This document shows positions 9,347 to 41,486 of a stretch of 41,486 nt of DNA, in pieces (the first letter of the stretch is position 1; the number at the start of each line of letters is the position of its first letter). The notes below the pieces were generated by a model. The model worked only from the letters and a program-made list of their open reading frames with translations, searched no databases and was not told the DNA's origin. The translations under genes and the position numbers were made by a program. The DNA lies in the NCBI GenBank assembly GCA_964442515.1, contig CAYUAC010000002.1:1-41486 (forward strand), read 5' to 3'. The DNA is from an uncultured Campylobacterales bacterium. Its GTDB lineage: Bacteria; Campylobacterota; Campylobacteria; Campylobacterales; Sulfurovaceae.

Positions 9347-10789
9347 ATGACAACATCCAAGTACCGCGTTGTCTTTATCATCACCCTGCTGCTTTTATCA
9401 CTCTCTATTGCGCTTTCGTTCTTAAACTATTCGGTATCGATGCAAAACGCAAAATCCCAGCTTAAAAACCAGTCGCTGCCCCTGTCTCTGGATAATATTT
9501 ACACCGTTATCCAAAAACACATCATCGAACCAAGCCTCATCTCTTCCATGATGGCAAACGACACCTTTTTGCATGACTGGCTGCACCACGAAAAAAGCAG
9601 AAGCGTCAACGAAGTCCGGCAATATCTGGGCGCCATCCAGCAGCGGTACGGGATGTTTAATACCTTTTTAGTCTCCGATATCACAAAAAATTATTACACG
9701 CATGAAGGCTTTGTCGAAAAGGTCAGCGCCAAACGCCCGAGAAATCAGTGGTATTACGATTTCAAACTTTCAGCCCCGACCCACGAGATCAATCTTGACC
9801 ACAATGAAAATTTTTCCAATGAACTGATCATGTTTATCAATCATAAAATCTTTGATCACGACCGCACTTATCTGGGCACCACCGGCGTTGCCATGAATCT
9901 GTCCTATATTGACGGTATTTTACGAGATTTTCGCACCAACCACAACTTTGTCGTTACATTTTTTGATAAAGAGGGCAAAGTCGTCCTGGCTGAACGCAAT
10001 GAAGATTTCACCGCCCACATCGACGATTTTGCGGTTTTGTCACAGTATAAAGATGAGATTCTTTCGCCAAAAAGCAGTATGATCGAGTACAAACAATACG
10101 GTTCCAGCCGCCTCCTGACAACCAAGTATATCCCCGAACTGAATCTTTTTTTAAGCGTTGAAGCCAAACTCTCGGATTTCACCAAAGATGTCAAAAAAGT
10201 CCTCATCTTAAATGTAGCCGTTTCAATCATGATTACGCTCATTGTCGCTTTTATCATCTATTATCTCATCAAAAACTACAGCAGAAAGCTTGAGTTTTAC
10301 TCCTCCCACGACCCGCTGACAAAGCTGCCCAACAGGCGCGACTTCGAACAAAAGTTCAAACACCATATCGCCCTGGCAAAACGCGACGCAAAACCCCATT
10401 CGATCCTGTTTTTAGATATCGATGATTTTAAAGCCATCAACGACAGTTTCGGCCACGCCACAGGCGACAGGGTTATCTGCCAGATAGCGCGCATCCTGGA
10501 AAACACGCTTCGCAAAACCGACCTGGTCGCACGGTGGGGCGGGGAGGAGTTTATCGCCGCACTCATTGACTGCGACAGCCAGATGGCGGTGCAAAACGCC
10601 CAGAAAATCCTGCAAACGATCAAACAGGATGCAATACTCGTCCAGATCACGGGCCGCCAGATTACTGCCAGCATCGGGGTAAGCACCCTGCGCGAAAGCG
10701 ATACGCTTGATTCAATCATTTCACGGGCCGATGACGCGATGTATGCAGCCAAAAACTCGGGCAAGAACAAAGTCACCTGTTATAAATGA
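9347..10789 (+). CDS. Diguanylate cyclase with N-terminal periplasmic (Cache-like) sensor domain
   Basis: Start at ATG 9347 (MTTSKYRVVFIITLLLLSLSIALS). TM, about 270-aa periplasmic region, TM, then a GGDEF domain (DIDDFKAINDSFGH, RWGGEEF). Confidence 0.9.
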   Translation: MTTSKYRVVFIITLLLLSLSIALSFLNYSVSMQNAKSQLKNQSLPLSLDNIYTVIQKHIIEPSLISSMMANDTFLHDWLHHEKSRSVNEVRQYLGAIQQRYGMFNTFLVSDITKNYYTHEGFVEKVSAKRPRNQWYYDFKLSAPTHEINLDHNENFSNELIMFINHKIFDHDRTYLGTTGVAMNLSYIDGILRDFRTNHNFVVTFFDKEGKVVLAERNEDFTAHIDDFAVLSQYKDEILSPKSSMIEYKQYGSSRLLTTKYIPELNLFLSVEAKLSDFTKDVKKVLILNVAVSIMITLIVAFIIYYLIKNYSRKLEFYSSHDPLTKLPNRRDFEQKFKHHIALAKRDAKPHSILFLDIDDFKAINDSFGHATGDRVICQIARILENTLRKTDLVARWGGEEFIAALIDCDSQMAVQNAQKILQTIKQDAILVQITGRQITASIGVSTLRESDTLDSIISRADDAMYAAKNSGKNKVTCYK

Positions 10790-18349: not shown

Positions 18350-20983
18350 GTGCAGACTGTAACCATCATCGATACCTTTGGCTTTTTGTTTCGAAGTTAT
18401 TTCGCCCTGCCCCCGCTTTCAAACAAAGACGGCTTTCCCACCGGTCTGCTGACAGGGTTTGCCAATTTTATCTCCAATATCTACAGCGAGCATTTGACCG
18501 ATTATCTGGTCTTTGCGCTTGACAGCGAGGGGAAGAGTTTTCGAAACGATATCGATGAAAATTACAAAGCCCACCGTCCCGATGTCCCCCAGGACCTGCT
18601 CAAACAGCTTCCCGTGGCGATTTCGTGGATTGACAAGATCGGTTTTGCCTCAAAAGCCGTGCCGGGATTCGAAGCCGATGACATCGTCGCGACGCTGGCC
18701 AAGAAAGCCAAAAAGGCGGGCTACAAAGTCCGCATCGTAAGCCACGACAAAGACCTTTATCAGCTCATTTCAGACAATATCCACATGTATGATCCCATCA
18801 AGAAAAAAGAGATCGGCCCCGACGAATGCATGGAAAAATACGGCATCAGGCCCGACCAGTTTGTTGATTATCAGGCGATGGTCGGCGACAGCGCCGATAA
18901 CGTACCCGGTATCAAAGGCATCGGCGCCAAAACGGCGCAAAAACTCTTGACGCAGTTTGGTTCGCTTGAAAATATTTACAAAAACATCGATATCGCCGGT
19001 ACGCCCCGGATCAAAAAGCTTTTGCACGAGGGCAAAGACGCCGCTTTTATCTCAAAACAGCTGGTAACGCTCAGAGACGACGTTGATGTAGACTTTGACA
19101 GCAAAACCTTCGACCTGGTGGAAAAACCGCTTGTCAAGATCAAAGACGAGTTGGAAAGATATGAACTCCGGCGGGTTCTTGGCAAGGTCGGTTCGCACTC
19201 AAAAACCAATGCGCACCACAACAGTTACGAATTTGAAGCCCTGCTGCTTGATACCAGTGCCAAGCTTGAGGCCGTGATCGACAAGCTTGGCAGCAACGAT
19301 ATCGTCGCTTTTGATACCGAAACGGATTCTTTAAACGCTACGCAGGCAAACCTGGTGGGTTTTAGTTTCTGTACGCAAAAAAGCAAAGCCTATTACGTTC
19401 CCATAGCCCACAAAGGGCTTGACGTAGGCAACCAGCTTGATCTGCAGGACGCACTGAAAGGAATCAAAAAACTTTTTGGCTGCAAAATCGTGGGGCAAAA
19501 CATCAAATACGACCTCAAGGTTTTGCATAAATACGGCCAGAACCTGCCCGCCCCCTTTTGCGATACGATGATTTTATCCTGGCTGCACAATCCCGGACTC
19601 AAACACGGCCTGGATATTCAGGCCAAACGCTTTTTTGACTACACGATGAAACCGTTTAAAGAACTGGTTGCAAAGGGGCAGACTTTTGCCGATGTCGCTC
19701 TTGGCAAAGCGTGCTTTTACGCGGCCGAAGACGCGTGGATGACATATCTGCTGTATGATAAATACAAAAACATTCTCGATGACAAATTCTTTACCATCGC
19801 CGGAACAATCGAAATCCCTTTTATCCGGGTGCTGCTTGCCATGGAACTGGAAGGGATCGCCGTAGACAGGCAAAAGCTGCACCATCTGGGAGAAGTAACC
19901 CAAAAACGGCTGCAGGAATTGACCACAACCATCTATGAACTAAGCGGCACGGAATTTAATATCAACTCCACGCAACAGTTGGCGTCGGTGCTGTTTGAAC
20001 GGCTGGGACTGCAAGGAGGCAAAAAAACCAAAACCGGTTTCAGTACTAATGAGAAGGTTTTGCAAACGCTTATCGACAAACACCCCGTCATCGAAAAGAT
20101 TTTACAATACCGGGAAGTACAAAAAATCTCTTCCACCTACGTCAAACCCTTGGAACGCTACCTCGTTGACGGCCGGATTTATACCAACTTCATGCATACT
20201 GGCACCGCTACGGGCAGGCTGAGTTCCAATAACCCCAACCTGCAAAACATCCCAACCAGAAGCGATCTTGGCAAGAAGGTGCGTGATTGCTTCGTAGCCA
20301 AAGAGGGTTACAGCCTGGTCAGTATCGACTACTCCCAGATCGAACTGCGCCTGCTGGCGCATTTCAGCCGGGACAAAGCGTTGATAGAGGCGTTTAACAA
20401 TGACGAAGATATCCACCTGGCAACGGCCAGGAAGCTTTTCGGCGACCGGGCGAAAGAAAAAAGGAACTTCGCCAAAAGCGTCAATTTCGGCCTTCTTTAC
20501 GGGATGGGCAGCCGCAAGCTGGGCGAAGAACTGGGTATCCCCGCAAAAGAAGCCAAGCAGATCATACAAGATTATTTTGCCTCCTTTGCCAGCGTCAAAA
20601 CGTATCTGAACTCTATCGAGCAAAAGGCGCAAGAAGACGGATACGTTACCACGATCGCGGGCCGCAGGCGCTACTTTGATTTTGCAAGTGCCAACGCGAT
20701 GATGCAAAACGCGTATTTACGAGAAGCGGTCAATACCGTTTTTCAGGGAAGCGCGGCGGATTTGATCAAAAAAGGGATGAACAAAATCTTTGACAACTTC
20801 CATGACAACCCGGATGTACGAATGCTGCTGCAAATCCACGATGAACTGATCTTTGAGATTAAAAGCGGCAAAGAAGAAGAGTACGGCAAACGGCTGCAAA
20901 CGATCCTGCAGGAGGTATACAGTCTCAAGGTTCCTTTAAAAACCTCTTTGGATATCGCAAAAAGCTGGGGAGAGTTGAAATGA
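18350..20983 (+). CDS. polA: DNA polymerase I
   Basis: 877 aa, GTG start directly after the preceding stop. 5'-nuclease N-terminus, 3'-5' exo motif AFDTETDSL, polymerase motifs DYSQIELRLLAH, KSVNFGLLYG and LQIHDELIFE. Confidence 0.97.
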   Translation: MQTVTIIDTFGFLFRSYFALPPLSNKDGFPTGLLTGFANFISNIYSEHLTDYLVFALDSEGKSFRNDIDENYKAHRPDVPQDLLKQLPVAISWIDKIGFASKAVPGFEADDIVATLAKKAKKAGYKVRIVSHDKDLYQLISDNIHMYDPIKKKEIGPDECMEKYGIRPDQFVDYQAMVGDSADNVPGIKGIGAKTAQKLLTQFGSLENIYKNIDIAGTPRIKKLLHEGKDAAFISKQLVTLRDDVDVDFDSKTFDLVEKPLVKIKDELERYELRRVLGKVGSHSKTNAHHNSYEFEALLLDTSAKLEAVIDKLGSNDIVAFDTETDSLNATQANLVGFSFCTQKSKAYYVPIAHKGLDVGNQLDLQDALKGIKKLFGCKIVGQNIKYDLKVLHKYGQNLPAPFCDTMILSWLHNPGLKHGLDIQAKRFFDYTMKPFKELVAKGQTFADVALGKACFYAAEDAWMTYLLYDKYKNILDDKFFTIAGTIEIPFIRVLLAMELEGIAVDRQKLHHLGEVTQKRLQELTTTIYELSGTEFNINSTQQLASVLFERLGLQGGKKTKTGFSTNEKVLQTLIDKHPVIEKILQYREVQKISSTYVKPLERYLVDGRIYTNFMHTGTATGRLSSNNPNLQNIPTRSDLGKKVRDCFVAKEGYSLVSIDYSQIELRLLAHFSRDKALIEAFNNDEDIHLATARKLFGDRAKEKRNFAKSVNFGLLYGMGSRKLGEELGIPAKEAKQIIQDYFASFASVKTYLNSIEQKAQEDGYVTTIAGRRRYFDFASANAMMQNAYLREAVNTVFQGSAADLIKKGMNKIFDNFHDNPDVRMLLQIHDELIFEIKSGKEEEYGKRLQTILQEVYSLKVPLKTSLDIAKSWGELK

Positions 20984-36649: not shown

Positions 36650-37780
36650 TTGAATTTTATTTCTAAACTCAAAAACCTTCTGCACTGGGAAGCCCAGCCA
36701 AAACCCCATATCAACTTAAATGCGCAGATATACAGTCTGCTGCAACCGTTTCGACTGCCTTTTATCCTCATTGTCCTGGTGATGATGCTTGGTACGGTAG
36801 GCTACATGGTTATTGACGATTTTCCTTTAATGGACGCCATCTATCAAACCGGTATCACCTTTACCACCGTGGGCTTTGGCGAGATCGCGCCTATCAGTGA
36901 TCAGGGGCGTGTCTTTACGGTCACGCTTATTATCATCGGTTTTTTGATCTTTACGATCTCCATCGGTATCGTCGCCGAAGCACTCAAAAGCGGCGAACTG
37001 CAAAAACTTATAAAGGAGCGCAAAATGCTCTATAAAATCGCCCGGCTCAAAAGACATTTTGTTATCTGCTACCAAAACGAATTCACCATCCAGGTAGCCG
37101 ACCAGCTCAAACAGGCCCACGTCCCCTTTGTTATCATCGATCCAGGCGACGATATAGAACATGTCGCCAAGAAACAGGGCTATACCTACTACCTGCAAGC
37201 CCATCCCCACACCAACGAAGCGATGCTCAAATCCTTTCTTTCCAGTGCCAAGGGGTTGATTACGCTGGCTGACAATATCGCCGACAATATCGCCACGATC
37301 ACTTCGGCCAGGCTGTATGAACAGGAAATCGTCAAAAAAACGCCGTTTCAGATTATTTCAAAAGCCAACAATTCCGGCGACCATGAAAAGCTTAAGAAAC
37401 TGGGAGCGGACAATACCGTCATCCCCACAAAACTGATGGCCCAGAGAGTGGGTTCTATGGCCCTGCGTCCGGATATGGTCAATATTATGGAGCGCTTCAT
37501 GTATTCCGGCGACAGCGCGCTGGATATGGAAGAGGTGGAAGTACCAAAACGAAGCTGGCTGGTCCTTAAAAAGATAAAAGATACGCACTTTCGTGATTTT
37601 ACCAACGTCTCCATCGTCGGTATCCGCAGAAAAGACGGCGTGTTCAAATCGATGCCAAGTTCCAAAGAACTCATTACCGGCCAGTGCAAACTCTTACTGA
37701 TCGGCAAAGCCGAGGGCATCAGCCTGACAAAACAGTTGATCAATAAAAACAAAAAACCAAAGGAACTCAGCTATGTTTAA
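36650..37780 (+). CDS. Potassium channel protein with RCK/TrkA domains
   Basis: TTG start. Two TMs flanking the selectivity filter TTVGFGE, then TrkA-N-like (HFVICYQNEFT) and TrkA-C-like regions. Confidence 0.85.
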   Translation: MNFISKLKNLLHWEAQPKPHINLNAQIYSLLQPFRLPFILIVLVMMLGTVGYMVIDDFPLMDAIYQTGITFTTVGFGEIAPISDQGRVFTVTLIIIGFLIFTISIGIVAEALKSGELQKLIKERKMLYKIARLKRHFVICYQNEFTIQVADQLKQAHVPFVIIDPGDDIEHVAKKQGYTYYLQAHPHTNEAMLKSFLSSAKGLITLADNIADNIATITSARLYEQEIVKKTPFQIISKANNSGDHEKLKKLGADNTVIPTKLMAQRVGSMALRPDMVNIMERFMYSGDSALDMEEVEVPKRSWLVLKKIKDTHFRDFTNVSIVGIRRKDGVFKSMPSSKELITGQCKLLLIGKAEGISLTKQLINKNKKPKELSYV

Positions 37781-38954
37781 CGCAATCCCCGTCAAAGGCG
37801 GTTTTAACTGTCTGGATGATTTTTACAGCGGCGGAATCCACGCCGGGTTCAAACCCAACGAAGAACTTGACCTTGGCTTTATCAGAAGCGACAAACCCTG
37901 TTCGCTGTCGTATCTTTTTACCAAAAACCGTTTTAAAGCCGCGCCTTTGAAACATGTTTTGCAAAACGGTTTCAAACAGTGCGATTTTATCCTGCTGAAT
38001 TCAAAAAATGCCAATGCCCTTACCGGGGAGCAGGGCTTAAAAGATGTCGATACGCTGCTTGAACATGTCCGACAAACCCACAAAGCCACAAGCCCGATCA
38101 TGAGTTCAACCGGTGTCATCGGGGTATGCTTAGATACCGACAAACTCAAAAACGGCATCAATAATCTCGATATCAATGAAAAAAACAGCCACGCCGCGGC
38201 AAAAGCGATCATGACCACCGACAGCGGACCCAAAGAGTGCGCCTATGAAGTCGAACTTGATGACGGCAGCAGCTTCAAGGTTGCGGGAATCGCCAAGGGA
38301 GCTGGGATGATCGATCCGAGTATGGCGACGATGCTCTGTTTTATCGCCACAGACGCCGATATTCCCGATGAGCATATGCACACGGCGTTAAAAGAAGCCA
38401 ACGAAATCTCGTTTAACGCAATCAGCGTGGACGGAGACCGCTCGACCAATGATTCGGTGTTTTTGATGAGTTCAAAAAGCGGAGCGTATGAACAAAAAGC
38501 GTTTCAATTTGCCCTGGACCGGGTCATGCAGGAACTGGCGCTAAAGATCGTCGGGGACGGAGAAGGGGCCACAAAACTGGCGGCATTTCACGTCAAAGGC
38601 GCAAAAGACGACTACGAGGCAAAACTGGCGGCAAAGAAACTGAGCAATTCGCTGCTGGTAAAAACCGCGCTTTTTGGCCAAGACCCAAACTGGGGCCGGA
38701 TCGCTTCTACCATCGGGGCAAGCGAAGTTACGTGCAGCGAAGAAAGTTTACGGATTTTCTTTGATGACCTGCTCATTTACGACAAGGGCAGCGTATATTT
38801 TGATCAGGAAAATGAAAACAAAGCCGCCGAAATCATGGGCCAAAGCAGCTTTAAAATCACCTGCGATCTGGGCGCCGGCGAGGGAGAGTATACCGCATAC
38901 GGATGCGACCTTGGCTATGAATACGTAAAAATCAACGCCGATTACAGAACGTAA
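37773..38954 (+). CDS. argJ: Bifunctional glutamate N-acetyltransferase / amino-acid acetyltransferase
   Basis: KGAGMIDPSMATMLCFIATDA (autoprocessing site), SVDGDRSTNDS, GQDPNWGRI, C-terminal INADYRT. Confidence 0.95.
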   Translation: MFNAIPVKGGFNCLDDFYSGGIHAGFKPNEELDLGFIRSDKPCSLSYLFTKNRFKAAPLKHVLQNGFKQCDFILLNSKNANALTGEQGLKDVDTLLEHVRQTHKATSPIMSSTGVIGVCLDTDKLKNGINNLDINEKNSHAAAKAIMTTDSGPKECAYEVELDDGSSFKVAGIAKGAGMIDPSMATMLCFIATDADIPDEHMHTALKEANEISFNAISVDGDRSTNDSVFLMSSKSGAYEQKAFQFALDRVMQELALKIVGDGEGATKLAAFHVKGAKDDYEAKLAAKKLSNSLLVKTALFGQDPNWGRIASTIGASEVTCSEESLRIFFDDLLIYDKGSVYFDQENENKAAEIMGQSSFKITCDLGAGEGEYTAYGCDLGYEYVKINADYRT

Positions 38955-38961
38955 GCTGTCA

Positions 38962-38989
38962 TTTACAATAACAAATGTTATTCTATAAA
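38962..38989 (+). promoter_or_regulatory. Sigma70-like promoter for the TnsE-like gene
   Basis: TTTACA (38962-38967), 16-nt spacer, TATAAA (38984-38989). AAAGGAG RBS 7 nt before the TTG at 39017. Confidence 0.3.
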
Positions 38990-39016
38990 GAAAAATGTTA
39001 CTAAAGGAGTGAAGAT

Positions 39017-40696
39017 TTGGCTAAAAATGACAATCAAATTCTCAACTTCTTTAATCAGCACAAAAATGAACCTTTTGAGTTTATAATTGTTACTGATATA
39101 AATCTCAAACTCCACCCAAACTACTACAAAGCAATTTTTAAAAACATTAAAACAGGTGCTTTTCACGCAACAGAAATAACTCCTGAAATGATGCGGTATA
39201 AATATAAAGTCGGTCATATATACACTAACGGTAAACATGTCGGACAAAACCCCTCTTTGCTAAAAGCTGAATTTAGAGTTAATAAAAACACTGATATTGA
39301 AGTAGACCGCCTATCTCATCATATCAACCAAGATGAAGTAAAGAATATCATTGATTACGAAGATGTATATAAATACTTATTGCGGCAATATGTACATGTA
39401 GAAAAACAAGATGAATTTACTTTGATAATCCCTTGCTATACAATTGCAAACAGGTTTTATTTTTTGTCTTCATCAATGAAACATGCAATTATGAGCACAA
39501 CACTTGAAGAACTATACTACAAAGGGAGTTTTCATCATGATATTAATAAAAAAGGTGAAACTATTGTAAAGCTTCACATTAAAAAGAAAGCAGGGAAAAA
39601 AGACCTGCCGTTTATATGCCGTTTTGCAGGCAGTACTTTTGCACAAAATAGGCTCAAATACCTCAATGAACAAAAATCATTGAGTGAGAATAGAGAATAC
39701 CAACCGATAAAAGCACAGTTTCCAGTTAGAAACTCTTTTGATATATATGCCTCATATATTTATGTAGGTGATGATGAAAGAGGCGAGCCAAAGTATTTGG
39801 TACTCAATATTCACTCAGACAACTCGCCGCTTGGTTTTAGTAAAATTTATTATAAGCAATATAGTGCAAAACAAGATCCAAAAGAGATAGAACCAGGTCA
39901 TTATGACATCCCTCCCAGACCAAAAAATAAATTTAAGAAAAAAAAGCCTAAACGAACAAATACGATTTATACAGGAATACCTTCTAGTGAATACCTAAGA
40001 TATACGCTTCATACTCGTGAAGAGGAATATTACAAAAATCATGTATCTATATATGGATCAACTATTCACGGGGAAGGCGAAAGTAACTCAGAATTAAAAG
40101 TCGAAAGTTCTGAAAACAAAGTTGGAGGTAGCTTTGAACCTCCTTCAAGCAATGGAGATGAAAACTTAGGCGAAGTTATAACTTCAAATGATGTAGACGG
40201 AAAAGACAAAGAAAAGAAGATTTTTAACCTAAACAACTTTAACCAGTTCTATGAAGCACTGTTAAGCTATGCCTATGTAGATGGCTCTGAGCTTTTTGGA
40301 CCCTTTGAACTGAATAAAATAAGAAATGACAAACGAAAGTCTGTCAAATCAAAATCTATCTTGTTTGGAAATGAAAATGATCCAAGGCGATTTCTTTTTG
40401 GAATACTGTCTTATAACAAAAAAATGATCTATATAGTTGAAATAGAACAGGATTTAACCTGGGGACCATCTACATGGATATTTTTTACAGATGAGAATAC
40501 TCAACAATATTCTGAAGATGATATGAAAAAAATCATAGAACATTACATTCAAAAAAATTTGAAGTATACAAAGCTTACTGATTACGTAAAAAATAACTAT
40601 TCACTTTCTTTTGCTCAAAAAGAACATAGAAATGGTGATATTGATGATGATAGTGTTGAAAGATGGTGTGAGAGTGTTTTGAGGAAAGTTACATAA
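39017..40696 (+). CDS. TnsE-like protein (Tn7 transposition target-selector family), orphan arrangement
   Basis: 559 aa. Compared with Tn7 TnsE recalled from memory, it matches in three regions. First, LIIPCYTIANRFYFLSSSMKHAIMSTTLEELY versus YHIPQLELARSLFLINSYFCRSCLSSTALQQEF. Second, a charged low-complexity linker, then NFNQFYEALLS versus FANRFAAFDELLS and PRRFLFGILSYNKKMIYIVEIEQD versus PRVIKAVGVQRNGSEFVLLEVDASD. Third, the C-terminal SVERWCESVLRKV versus MEGWAERVVREQF. The size is similar (559 versus ~538 aa). Not verified by search. Confidence 0.45.
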   Translation: MAKNDNQILNFFNQHKNEPFEFIIVTDINLKLHPNYYKAIFKNIKTGAFHATEITPEMMRYKYKVGHIYTNGKHVGQNPSLLKAEFRVNKNTDIEVDRLSHHINQDEVKNIIDYEDVYKYLLRQYVHVEKQDEFTLIIPCYTIANRFYFLSSSMKHAIMSTTLEELYYKGSFHHDINKKGETIVKLHIKKKAGKKDLPFICRFAGSTFAQNRLKYLNEQKSLSENREYQPIKAQFPVRNSFDIYASYIYVGDDERGEPKYLVLNIHSDNSPLGFSKIYYKQYSAKQDPKEIEPGHYDIPPRPKNKFKKKKPKRTNTIYTGIPSSEYLRYTLHTREEEYYKNHVSIYGSTIHGEGESNSELKVESSENKVGGSFEPPSSNGDENLGEVITSNDVDGKDKEKKIFNLNNFNQFYEALLSYAYVDGSELFGPFELNKIRNDKRKSVKSKSILFGNENDPRRFLFGILSYNKKMIYIVEIEQDLTWGPSTWIFFTDENTQQYSEDDMKKIIEHYIQKNLKYTKLTDYVKNNYSLSFAQKEHRNGDIDDDSVERWCESVLRKVT

Positions 40697-40737: not shown

Positions 40738-41486
40738 TTATTCAGCGAACCATTCACGCATCTTATCATACTCTAATGAATATTTATTAATTCTGAAAAT
40801 TCCAATACTTGACTGGCTAGAATAATGAGATGTAAAAGGATAGCGGAAATGAATTGATATTCCTGCGTTTGTAAAAAACGTATTTTCACACATATAAAAG
40901 ATTAAGCTACCAAGAGCTTGAGCTTTAGTGGCCAGAGATGCAATATATATATTTCTTATATTAGAATGTATTTTTAAATATGCATGTATATAGTTTGAAA
41001 TGACTTTTGCAGTTTCAAAAGGATTATTAGCTGGAGCAGTTAAAGGTTCAAGAGTATGATCAATTTTTAGTGATGTTTGAGCTTTTTCAATATTGATTAA
41101 ATTTTCTTGATACATAATTGGCTGTAGGGCAGGATAGCCAATCAAAACAGTTGTTTCATTTACTTGAATATCTTGAAGCACACTTTTTACTAATCGTGAA
41201 TCATATCCAGCATTGACTATGAATAAATCATCTGAAGAAGGTTCAAAGTACTCTTGATCAATCATCATAATGTTTCTATTAATTAAAATATCCTTCTGAG
41301 CAAATTCTGTATTAGATGATTCTTTATATGCTTTCGGTTCAGAATAAATGATATCAATATTGGTAAATTTTAAATGTTTTAGATAAGGCAATAAAAATAT
41401 CATATATGGTTTTATGAAGCCAGAAATATCAATACATATAGACATTTCTGGAGTTAATTTTGCATACTTTAAGAATTCAAGTATAT
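40738..41486 (-). CDS. Hypothetical alpha/beta (Rossmann/CARF-like) protein, possibly 5'-truncated by the window edge
   Basis: The tracked ATG is at 41445, but the same frame stays open to 41486 (ILEFLKYAKLTPE before the Met). Alternating strand/helix pattern: ICIDISGF..., IDIIYSEP, LFIVNAGYD, TVLIGYPA, NIYIASLATKAQALG. This is reminiscent of Csa3/CARF-type ligand-binding folds. AT-rich. Confidence 0.55.
   Translation of the reverse strand, partial: ILEFLKYAKLTPEMSICIDISGFIKPYMIFLLPYLKHLKFTNIDIIYSEPKAYKESSNTEFAQKDILINRNIMMIDQEYFEPSSDDLFIVNAGYDSRLVKSVLQDIQVNETTVLIGYPALQPIMYQENLINIEKAQTSLKIDHTLEPLTAPANNPFETAKVISNYIHAYLKIHSNIRNIYIASLATKAQALGSLIFYMCENTFFTNAGISIHFRYPFTSHYSSQSSIGIFRINKYSLEYDKMREWFAE

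Follow-up and report, generated by a model that had tools for sequence, protein, structure and literature searches.

A tnsE-type gene beside argJ in a Campylobacterota genome probably marks one end of a Tn6022-branch Tn7-like transposon

The last kilobases of a 41,486-nucleotide stretch of DNA from an uncultured Campylobacterales bacterium (contig CAYUAC010000002.1 of assembly GCA_964442515.1; 'the window' below always means this whole stretch) hold the host gene argJ, a Tn7-type transposon terminus, a gene of the tnsE family and a defence gene that runs off the end. The subject of this work is the tnsE-family gene, whose 559-amino-acid (aa) product an initial annotation had likened to the Tn7 protein TnsE while describing the gene as an apparent orphan. 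The gene and its parts are laid out as follows.

39004-39010, + strand: ribosome-binding site of tnsE, AAAGGAG, 6 nt 5' of the start, by direct reading of the sequence
39017-40696, + strand: tnsE-family gene, TTG start, 559 aa, full length, reading frame present in the window
39017-39871, + strand: TnsE N-terminal domain (NTD), aa 1-285, homologous to the NTD of TnsE
39422-39484, + strand: best-conserved block of the family, LIIPCYTIANRFYFLSSSMKH, aa 136-156, in the hhalign register
39872-40213, + strand: disordered lysine-rich linker of TnsE, aa 286-399, with one short structured strand at aa 344-350
40214-40693, + strand: TnsE C-terminal domain (CTD), TnsE_C fold, aa 400-559, which in Tn7 TnsE binds dsDNA

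From end to end, the 559-aa protein is a genuine homologue of TnsE. Its family comprises ~550-aa proteins found in Sulfurimonas, Sulfuricurvum, Arcobacter and related metagenome-assembled genomes, and a relative at 36% identity carries the NCBI name 'Tn7-like element transposition protein TnsE'. Taken alone, the window protein scores 18.7 bits (E=0.0017) against Pfam TnsE_C (PF18623), under the 26.7-bit cutoff, but the same entry is matched by 14 of 34 family members (best E=9.8e-8). Narrow queries found little: phmmer with the single window protein and a first family profile built from 34 close sequences both returned nothing from the PDB, and neither BLASTP nor hhalign reached significance against one single Tn7 TnsE. 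Significance came only with a more diverse family profile and a profile of canonical TnsEs. An 87-member diverse profile matched the TnsE CTD structure 5D17 in the PDB (hmmsearch, E=2.2e-5) and E. coli Tn7 TnsE from plasmid R721 (hhalign, E=8e-6). When the family profile was aligned by hhalign to a profile of 33 canonical TnsEs, 493 columns aligned colinearly (probability 99.0%, E=4.3e-18), with family positions 18-552 lying on canonical TnsE 11-537. The two domains also matched separately (NTD only, 95.9% probability, E=6.3e-9, 223 columns; CTD only, E=7.8e-16), with mismatched-domain controls at E=0.26 and 0.45. An exhaustive profile search extended the family to 232 representative clusters, mostly full-length and reaching Desulfobulbia and Deferribacteres, all labelled hypothetical. 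Two other candidates were set aside: P0261 (538 aa), suspected of being a canonical TnsE, proved not to be one, and a 576-aa open reading frame at locus L031 is not a TnsE.

An AlphaFold model of the protein contains two confident domains, aa 1-285 and aa 400-559, separated by a linker whose predicted local distance difference test (pLDDT) score falls below 50 at aa 292-336 and 350-401; the NTD modelled alone has a pLDDT of 90.2. Foldseek against the PDB returned TnsE CTDs in all of the top seven places (5D17, 5D16 and 9D5L; probability 1.0, template modelling (TM) scores 0.57-0.68), and the next-best match had a probability of at most 0.12. The window protein is thus of the same two-domain type as Tn7 TnsE (E. 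coli Tn7, PDB 5D16/5D17; Thiopseudomonas TnsE, 9D5L) and shares colinear full-length homology with it, at an identity of only about 11-15%. E. coli TnsE has an NTD with an internal disordered loop, a linker and a CTD, with disordered regions termed DR1 and DR2 (PMC12153342); the layout of the window protein runs parallel, both having a length of ~530-560 aa, two domains and disordered linker(s). Much of what the initial annotation had proposed held. The likeness to TnsE over the whole architecture was borne out by significant profile-profile, per-domain and CTD-fold matches, hhalign reproduced both the proposed strand alignment (IYIVEIEQD with FVLLEVDAS) and the C-terminal one (VERWCESVLR with MEGWAERVVR), and the charged low-complexity linker is disordered at about aa 285-400 in the structure model. 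The profile search and fold comparison suggested there gave a significant TnsE match, with a CTD fold that found TnsE structures only.

The best-conserved block of the family lies in the NTD. There, hhalign reproduced the proposed pairing of IIPCYTIANRFYFL with IPQLELARSLFL and set LIIPCYTIANRFYFLSSSMK on HIPQLELARSLFLINSYFCRS, that is, on Tn7 TnsE residues 118-138, which contain PQLELARSLFL at 121-131; these eleven residues are reportedly the exact β-clamp motif of TnsE as defined by Parks et al. in 2009. P139, the sole residue invariant in 87 of 87 family members, aligns with P121 (so that this position is invariant in both sets), A144 aligns with A126, and the aromatic triplet Y-Y-F aligns with L-F-L; a P-x-x-x-hydrophobic-A...aromatic pattern is common to this NTD and that of Tn7 TnsE. 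On this alignment the block is homologous in position to the TnsE β-clamp motif. A conserved motif in the TnsE NTD mediates binding to the processivity factor (PMC4678854), and by analogy the NTD of the window family possibly contacts the sliding clamp.

What lies upstream of the gene identifies the position as a transposon end. The following features make up the junction.

37773-38954, + strand: argJ, a host gene and the conserved flank of the attachment site (open reading frame; Pfam ArgJ in homologous loci)
38957-38982, + strand: left (tnsA-distal) terminus, TGTCATTTACAATAAC-AAATGTTATT, a TGT... end plus the first TnsB-type repeat
38971-39002, + strand: two direct 12-mers, ACAAATGTTATT at 38971 and AAAAATGTTACT at 38991, 20 nt apart, putative TnsB-binding sites
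39083-39094, + strand: third copy of the 12-mer, ATAATTGTTACT, within tnsE at codons 23-26

A Tn7-type terminus (5'-TGTCATTT...), followed by repeated 12-mers, starts 2 nt past the argJ stop codon, and the order after that stop is TGTCATTTACAATAAC-AAATGTTATT-CTATAAAGAA-AAATGTTACT-AAAGGAG-...-TTG; a GGAGG stands at the place equivalent to the ribosome-binding site in relatives of this tnsE. The gene starts 60 bp inside the terminus, with the end of argJ 62 bp 5' of it, which agrees with the earlier description of tnsE as the first gene reading inward from the boundary. Loose matches to the 12-mer number eight in the whole window, half of them clustered at 38967-39094, and the positions of the 12-mers are conserved across 20 loci. 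The junction itself, made up of the argJ stop codon, 1-2 nt and the terminus, is identical in 20 related loci on the trkA-argJ side. A single copy of the signature TGTC-N12-AAWWGTTAYT is present in the window and in each related locus, without exception at this junction; in L031 a copy facing inward also stands upstream of tnsA, which makes the signature the terminal inverted repeat. The terminus coincides with a drop in guanine-cytosine (GC) content, which is 0.44-0.53 over most of the window and 0.489 at 38001-39000 and then falls to 0.323 and 0.302 in the last two kilobases.

These features change the meaning of two statements in the initial annotation. It placed argJ where tnsABCD should be; instead, insertion took place at the argJ stop codon, and going in from the tnsA-distal end the first gene is tnsE. 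It also gave tnsE its own promoter, which is not upheld: a scan found 13 promoter-like sites against 14.4 expected in shuffled sequence, not above chance. A sigma-70-like match, ATTACA-17-TACAAT (window 38941-38969), does span the junction, the -35 element falling in argJ and the -10 element in the terminus; it is statistically meaningless alone, and TACAAT is TACAAG in most relatives. No terminator-like site was found on the + strand between argJ and tnsE. At locus L020 (9863-10021) the left terminus and the first 20 nt of tnsE are present twice in tandem, as an exact 80-bp repeat that could be a real duplication or an assembly artefact.

The opposite end of such elements can be seen in relatives only. 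The tnsA-proximal ends of L003 (21414-21662) and L031 (9832-10001) share an inner repeat, AATTAATGTTATTWAATTTACAT, just upstream of tnsA. An inverted-repeat search over L003 was uninformative in its AT-rich DNA. As no clean 5-bp target duplication could be read there and its outer part differs from that of L031, the right end of L003 may be rearranged. A metagenome scan with TnsA yielded only two loci.

Queries drawn from Tn7-like elements of three kinds detected no tnsA, tnsB, tnsC, tniQ or tnsD at E<=1e-3 anywhere in the 41.5-kb window. Related loci supply the missing context. We found ~20 Sulfurimonadaceae loci with the same succession of argJ, element end and tnsE, and wherever the contigs of relatives are long enough, tniQ-tnsC-tnsB-tnsA is encoded on the opposite strand at a distance of 6-10 kb, and defence genes occupy the interval. 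In L003 (S. lithotrophica), for example, L28, trkA and argJ are followed by the element boundary, by tnsE reading towards four cargo genes and by tniQ-tnsC-tnsB-tnsA reading back towards them. The same convergent arrangement of argJ-flanked tnsE and tniQ-tnsC-tnsB(-tnsA) recurs in L005, L007, L009, L013 and L028, and L004 and L030 carry the same gene set at another site, dprA. Twelve loci combine a full tnsE with 10 kb or more of sequence beyond it, and in eight of them the core genes lie within 10 kb. The contigs of the two closest relatives also break shortly after tnsE. Comparison with these loci suggests that the orphan appearance is most likely an artefact, arising only because the window stops short of the other transposition genes. 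The description as an orphan thus did not survive the gene-neighbourhood survey of homologues, in which loci with the same argJ junction carry tniQ-tnsC-tnsB-tnsA at the opposite element end, convergent with tnsE.

Taken together, the open reading frame probably encodes a target selector of the TnsE type, belonging to a Tn7-like transposon that is of the Tn6022 branch and has inserted 2 nt past the argJ stop codon. The layout differs, as the initial annotation had said, from that of canonical Tn7, in which tnsE closes the tnsABCDE operon (R721); here and in relatives tnsE stands alone at the other end. A layout with tnsE at the tnsA-distal end is already known from Tn6022. Tn6022-type transposons encode TnsE close to the left end, on the strand opposite to the core genes and remote from them (PMC10293859), and TnsABC+TnsE transposition into the F plasmid has been shown experimentally for Tn6022 (PMC11014353). 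In Tn6022, the backbone of the Acinetobacter AbaR elements, where TnsE is Orf4, tnsE is likewise first inside the tnsA-distal end with cargo between it and the core genes. In a Tn6022-type locus (Faure et al., supplement) tnsE starts ~80 bp from the junction with comM and shares the orientation of the 5' part of that gene, compared with a start 60 bp from the terminus in the window, and the left end of Tn6022 faces the 5', upstream part of comM just as it faces dprA or argJ here. The relatives further share with Tn6022 a short TniB-like TnsC and a ~370-aa TniQ.

The core proteins point the same way, in a comparison made on the proteins of a relative, L003. By BLASTP, L003 TnsB matches the Tn6022-type protein at 34% identity (E=4e-71) and that of Tn7 at E=3e-24, TnsC matches at 32% identity (E=2e-44) and at E=4e-7, respectively, TniQ matches the Tn6022-type protein at E=2.5e-13 and Tn7 not significantly, and TnsA matches the Tn6022-type protein at E=9e-10. 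Throughout, the Tn7 matches are far weaker or lacking. By these sequence scores the Campylobacterota elements have core proteins nearer to the Tn6022 type than to Tn7. A rearranged canonical Tn7, in which an inversion or insertion broke the tnsABCDE operon, would account for a TnsE that is related by sequence to canonical TnsE and not to the partial Tn6022 TnsE NTD. Yet the arrangement is conserved in loci across genera and two attachment sites, the core proteins are of the short TniB/TniQ type found in Tn6022, and no TnsD-type protein is present, so that this explanation is effectively refuted and retains next to no probability.

The Campylobacterota elements also differ from Tn6022 in several respects. 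Whereas Tn6022 inserts in comM, these elements insert 1-2 nt past the argJ stop codon or within dprA. Tn6022 has a TnsF in an operon with tniQ, whereas here the neighbour of tniQ is cargo or tnsE, and tblastn with a partial Tn6022 TnsF gave no match at E<=1 in any locus. The partial Tn6022 TnsE NTD (368 aa, from the paper supplement) gave no colinear alignment with the window family, and TnsE here is alignable to canonical Tn7 TnsE instead; the hosts are Campylobacterota. Homing by TnsD/TniQ at attTn7 likewise inserts just past the stop of a conserved housekeeping gene that is left intact, at about 25 bp for Tn7 at glmS as against 1-2 nt past argJ. Tn7 puts its tnsA-proximal right end beside glmS; the end abutting the conserved gene here is the tnsA-distal one, the reverse of Tn7 at glmS. 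A literature search in an incomplete library turned up no report of Tn7-like elements in these taxa or at argJ or dprA, and the large surveys list loci by accession.

Several observations weigh against placing this gene in a transposon of that kind. The visible part of the element in the window comprises the left end, tnsE and one cargo gene, with the sequence ending at 41486, ~0.8 kb past tnsE, and an exact look-up of the window TnsE (P0001) in public assemblies returned only this contig. A search of PLSDB plasmids by tblastn with TnsE found no family member; the corresponding plasmid search with TnsB was swamped by Tn402-type TniA and reached no Tn6022 copy. The fold search with the NTD gave no significant solved counterpart in the PDB and neither confirmed nor refuted the published PriB/OB-like reading of this domain; we know of no solved structure of a TnsE NTD available for comparison. 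In the conserved block, which keeps P, A and the aromatic triplet, the residues Q122, E124 and R127 that never vary among the 33 canonical TnsEs have given way to others in the window family, and the block is at most a candidate for clamp binding. Four loci with a full tnsE (L008, L010, L014 and L029) showed no tns genes or right-end signature within 10 kb. Finally, at least eight loci (L016, L018 and L020-L025) have the left end and only the first 71-175 tnsE codons beside argJ (at ~10001 to 10200-10525 in each), followed by ordinary chromosomal genes.

The last two of these observations bear on decay, in which the window copy would have kept its left end, tnsE and some cargo and lost tnsABC-tniQ, leaving tnsE as a relic or active only in trans. 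Elements at this site do decay, as the stubs (aa 1-71 to 1-175) at the same junction demonstrate; they are recurrent scars at a single hotspot. Decayed copies elsewhere, however, have a truncated tnsE, whereas that of the window is intact and 87% identical to its nearest relative, and its GC content, far under that of the host, suggests a recent arrival. As Tn7-like elements are commonly 14-29 kb long (PMC8649781), absence of tns genes within 10 kb is weak evidence. We therefore judge decay of the window copy quite unlikely, while keeping it as a rival to an element whose remainder lies beyond the contig end.

The element was apparently acquired horizontally and site-specifically. The window TnsE is 87% identical to that of L001, whereas ArgJ is only 61% and TrkA 74% identical, and this excess of TnsE identity over that of its chromosomal neighbours, with the GC contrast (0.31 for the element in a ~0.48 genome), argues for such a transfer. 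The host GC of ~0.48 (window 1-39000) is unusually high for Sulfurimonadaceae, whose members related here are AT-rich. Host ArgJ is only 52-61% identical to ArgJ of the related loci, and for this reason the host is taken to be a divergent lineage that gained the element horizontally.

A sister branch inserts within the competence gene dprA, at codon ~57 in L029 and L030 and codon ~91 in L004 (coordinates L004:9676-12444; L029:9775-12518; L030:3479-3673 and 19858-20478). In L004 and L029 a full-length, diverged dprA directly follows tnsE, 63% and 51% identical, respectively, to the disrupted host fragment, and this element-borne dprA seems to serve as a replacement for the host gene, riding as cargo in an operon with tnsE. 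L030 lacks such a second dprA. In that Arcobacter element (L030:3652-19858), tnsE lies ~6.3 kb from the left terminus, with DUF4365, Endonuclease_1 and metallophosphatase genes between, and converges directly on tniQ. The stretch from tnsA to the dprA 3' fragment holds genes for an S8 peptidase and an AAA ATPase.

Next to tnsE in the window lies the only visible cargo gene.

40738-41486, - strand: CARF-family defence gene (PADLOC CARF6, E=4.3e-63, profile positions 96-310), convergent with tnsE

It lies 41 bp past the tnsE stop codon and is cut by the window end, as its frame is still open at the last base; ~95 N-terminal residues fall beyond that point. The gene has no Pfam match, and no CRISPR-Cas genes are visible beside it in the remaining sequence. 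Its product is likely a stand-alone or cargo-borne cyclic-oligonucleotide sensor. Cargo in relatives also consists of defence genes, including type II methyltransferases, an LmuB-like ATPase, a restriction-enzyme-like protein and a PRTase, and defence cargo is part of the published picture of Tn7-like elements (PMC8649781).

This neighbour invites the idea that a TnsE-fold protein was recruited to a role outside transposition, for example sensing DNA structure for the adjacent defence cargo, and simply rides at the edge of the element. tnsE both adjoins and converges on the CARF gene, the canonical clamp-motif residues are not conserved and most of the distant family members are annotated only as hypothetical. 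The cargo beside tnsE nevertheless differs from locus to locus while tnsE and the end position stay constant, and tnsABC-tniQ accompanies tnsE wherever the contig is long enough. Homology to TnsE covers both domains, and in Tn6022 the tnsE at the equivalent place functions in transposition. All of this makes recruitment very improbable. Of the three explanations offered by the initial annotation, an unusual element architecture is thus the one that stands, though that architecture is not new; recruitment to another function found no support and decay stays on as a rival.

For an element of the Tn6022 branch, the following mechanism can be proposed. To judge from some ten related loci, the remainder beyond the window would comprise more cargo and tniQ-tnsC-tnsB-tnsA reading inward from the other end. 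By homology to Tn7 and Tn6022, TniQ would direct site-specific homing to the chromosomal attachment site, and TnsE would provide a second pathway, its CTD binding duplex DNA and its NTD reading 3'-recessed or replicating DNA, possibly through the sliding clamp. TnsE would then recruit TnsC and TnsAB, and the element would hop into replicating mobile DNA such as conjugative plasmids. More speculatively, read-through from argJ may drive tnsE expression, with TnsB binding as a modulator, because no terminator separates the two genes and repeats lie between the terminus and the tnsE start. It is conceivable, though unlikely, that this extends to the whole branch, both the argJ and dprA elements and the comM-targeting Tn6022, with tnsE deliberately placed first inside the end next to the upstream portion of the targeted host gene, in the same orientation as that gene, without a terminator between the two and with the TnsB-binding repeats over the tnsE 5' region; tnsE would then be expressed by host-gene read-through gated by TnsB. 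If true, this would be a built-in switch linking the plasmid-hopping pathway to host physiology, through argJ or through the competence genes dprA and comM.

The findings have several consequences. First, for the window, the annotation becomes that of a mobile element from 38957 onward, with the remainder beyond the contig end. Second, two attachment sites, the argJ stop codon and dprA, are now defined, neither of which is mentioned in the surveys consulted, and the end sequences allow defence-carrying islands to be delimited. Finally, recognisable TnsE-type targeting is extended to a Campylobacterota clade of Tn7-like elements (Sulfurimonas, Sulfuricurvum and Arcobacter), and distant relatives carry it into Desulfobulbia and Deferribacteres. 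Most members of the family fall under the Pfam threshold and are annotated as hypothetical, which supports the published suspicion that the spread of tnsE has been underestimated.

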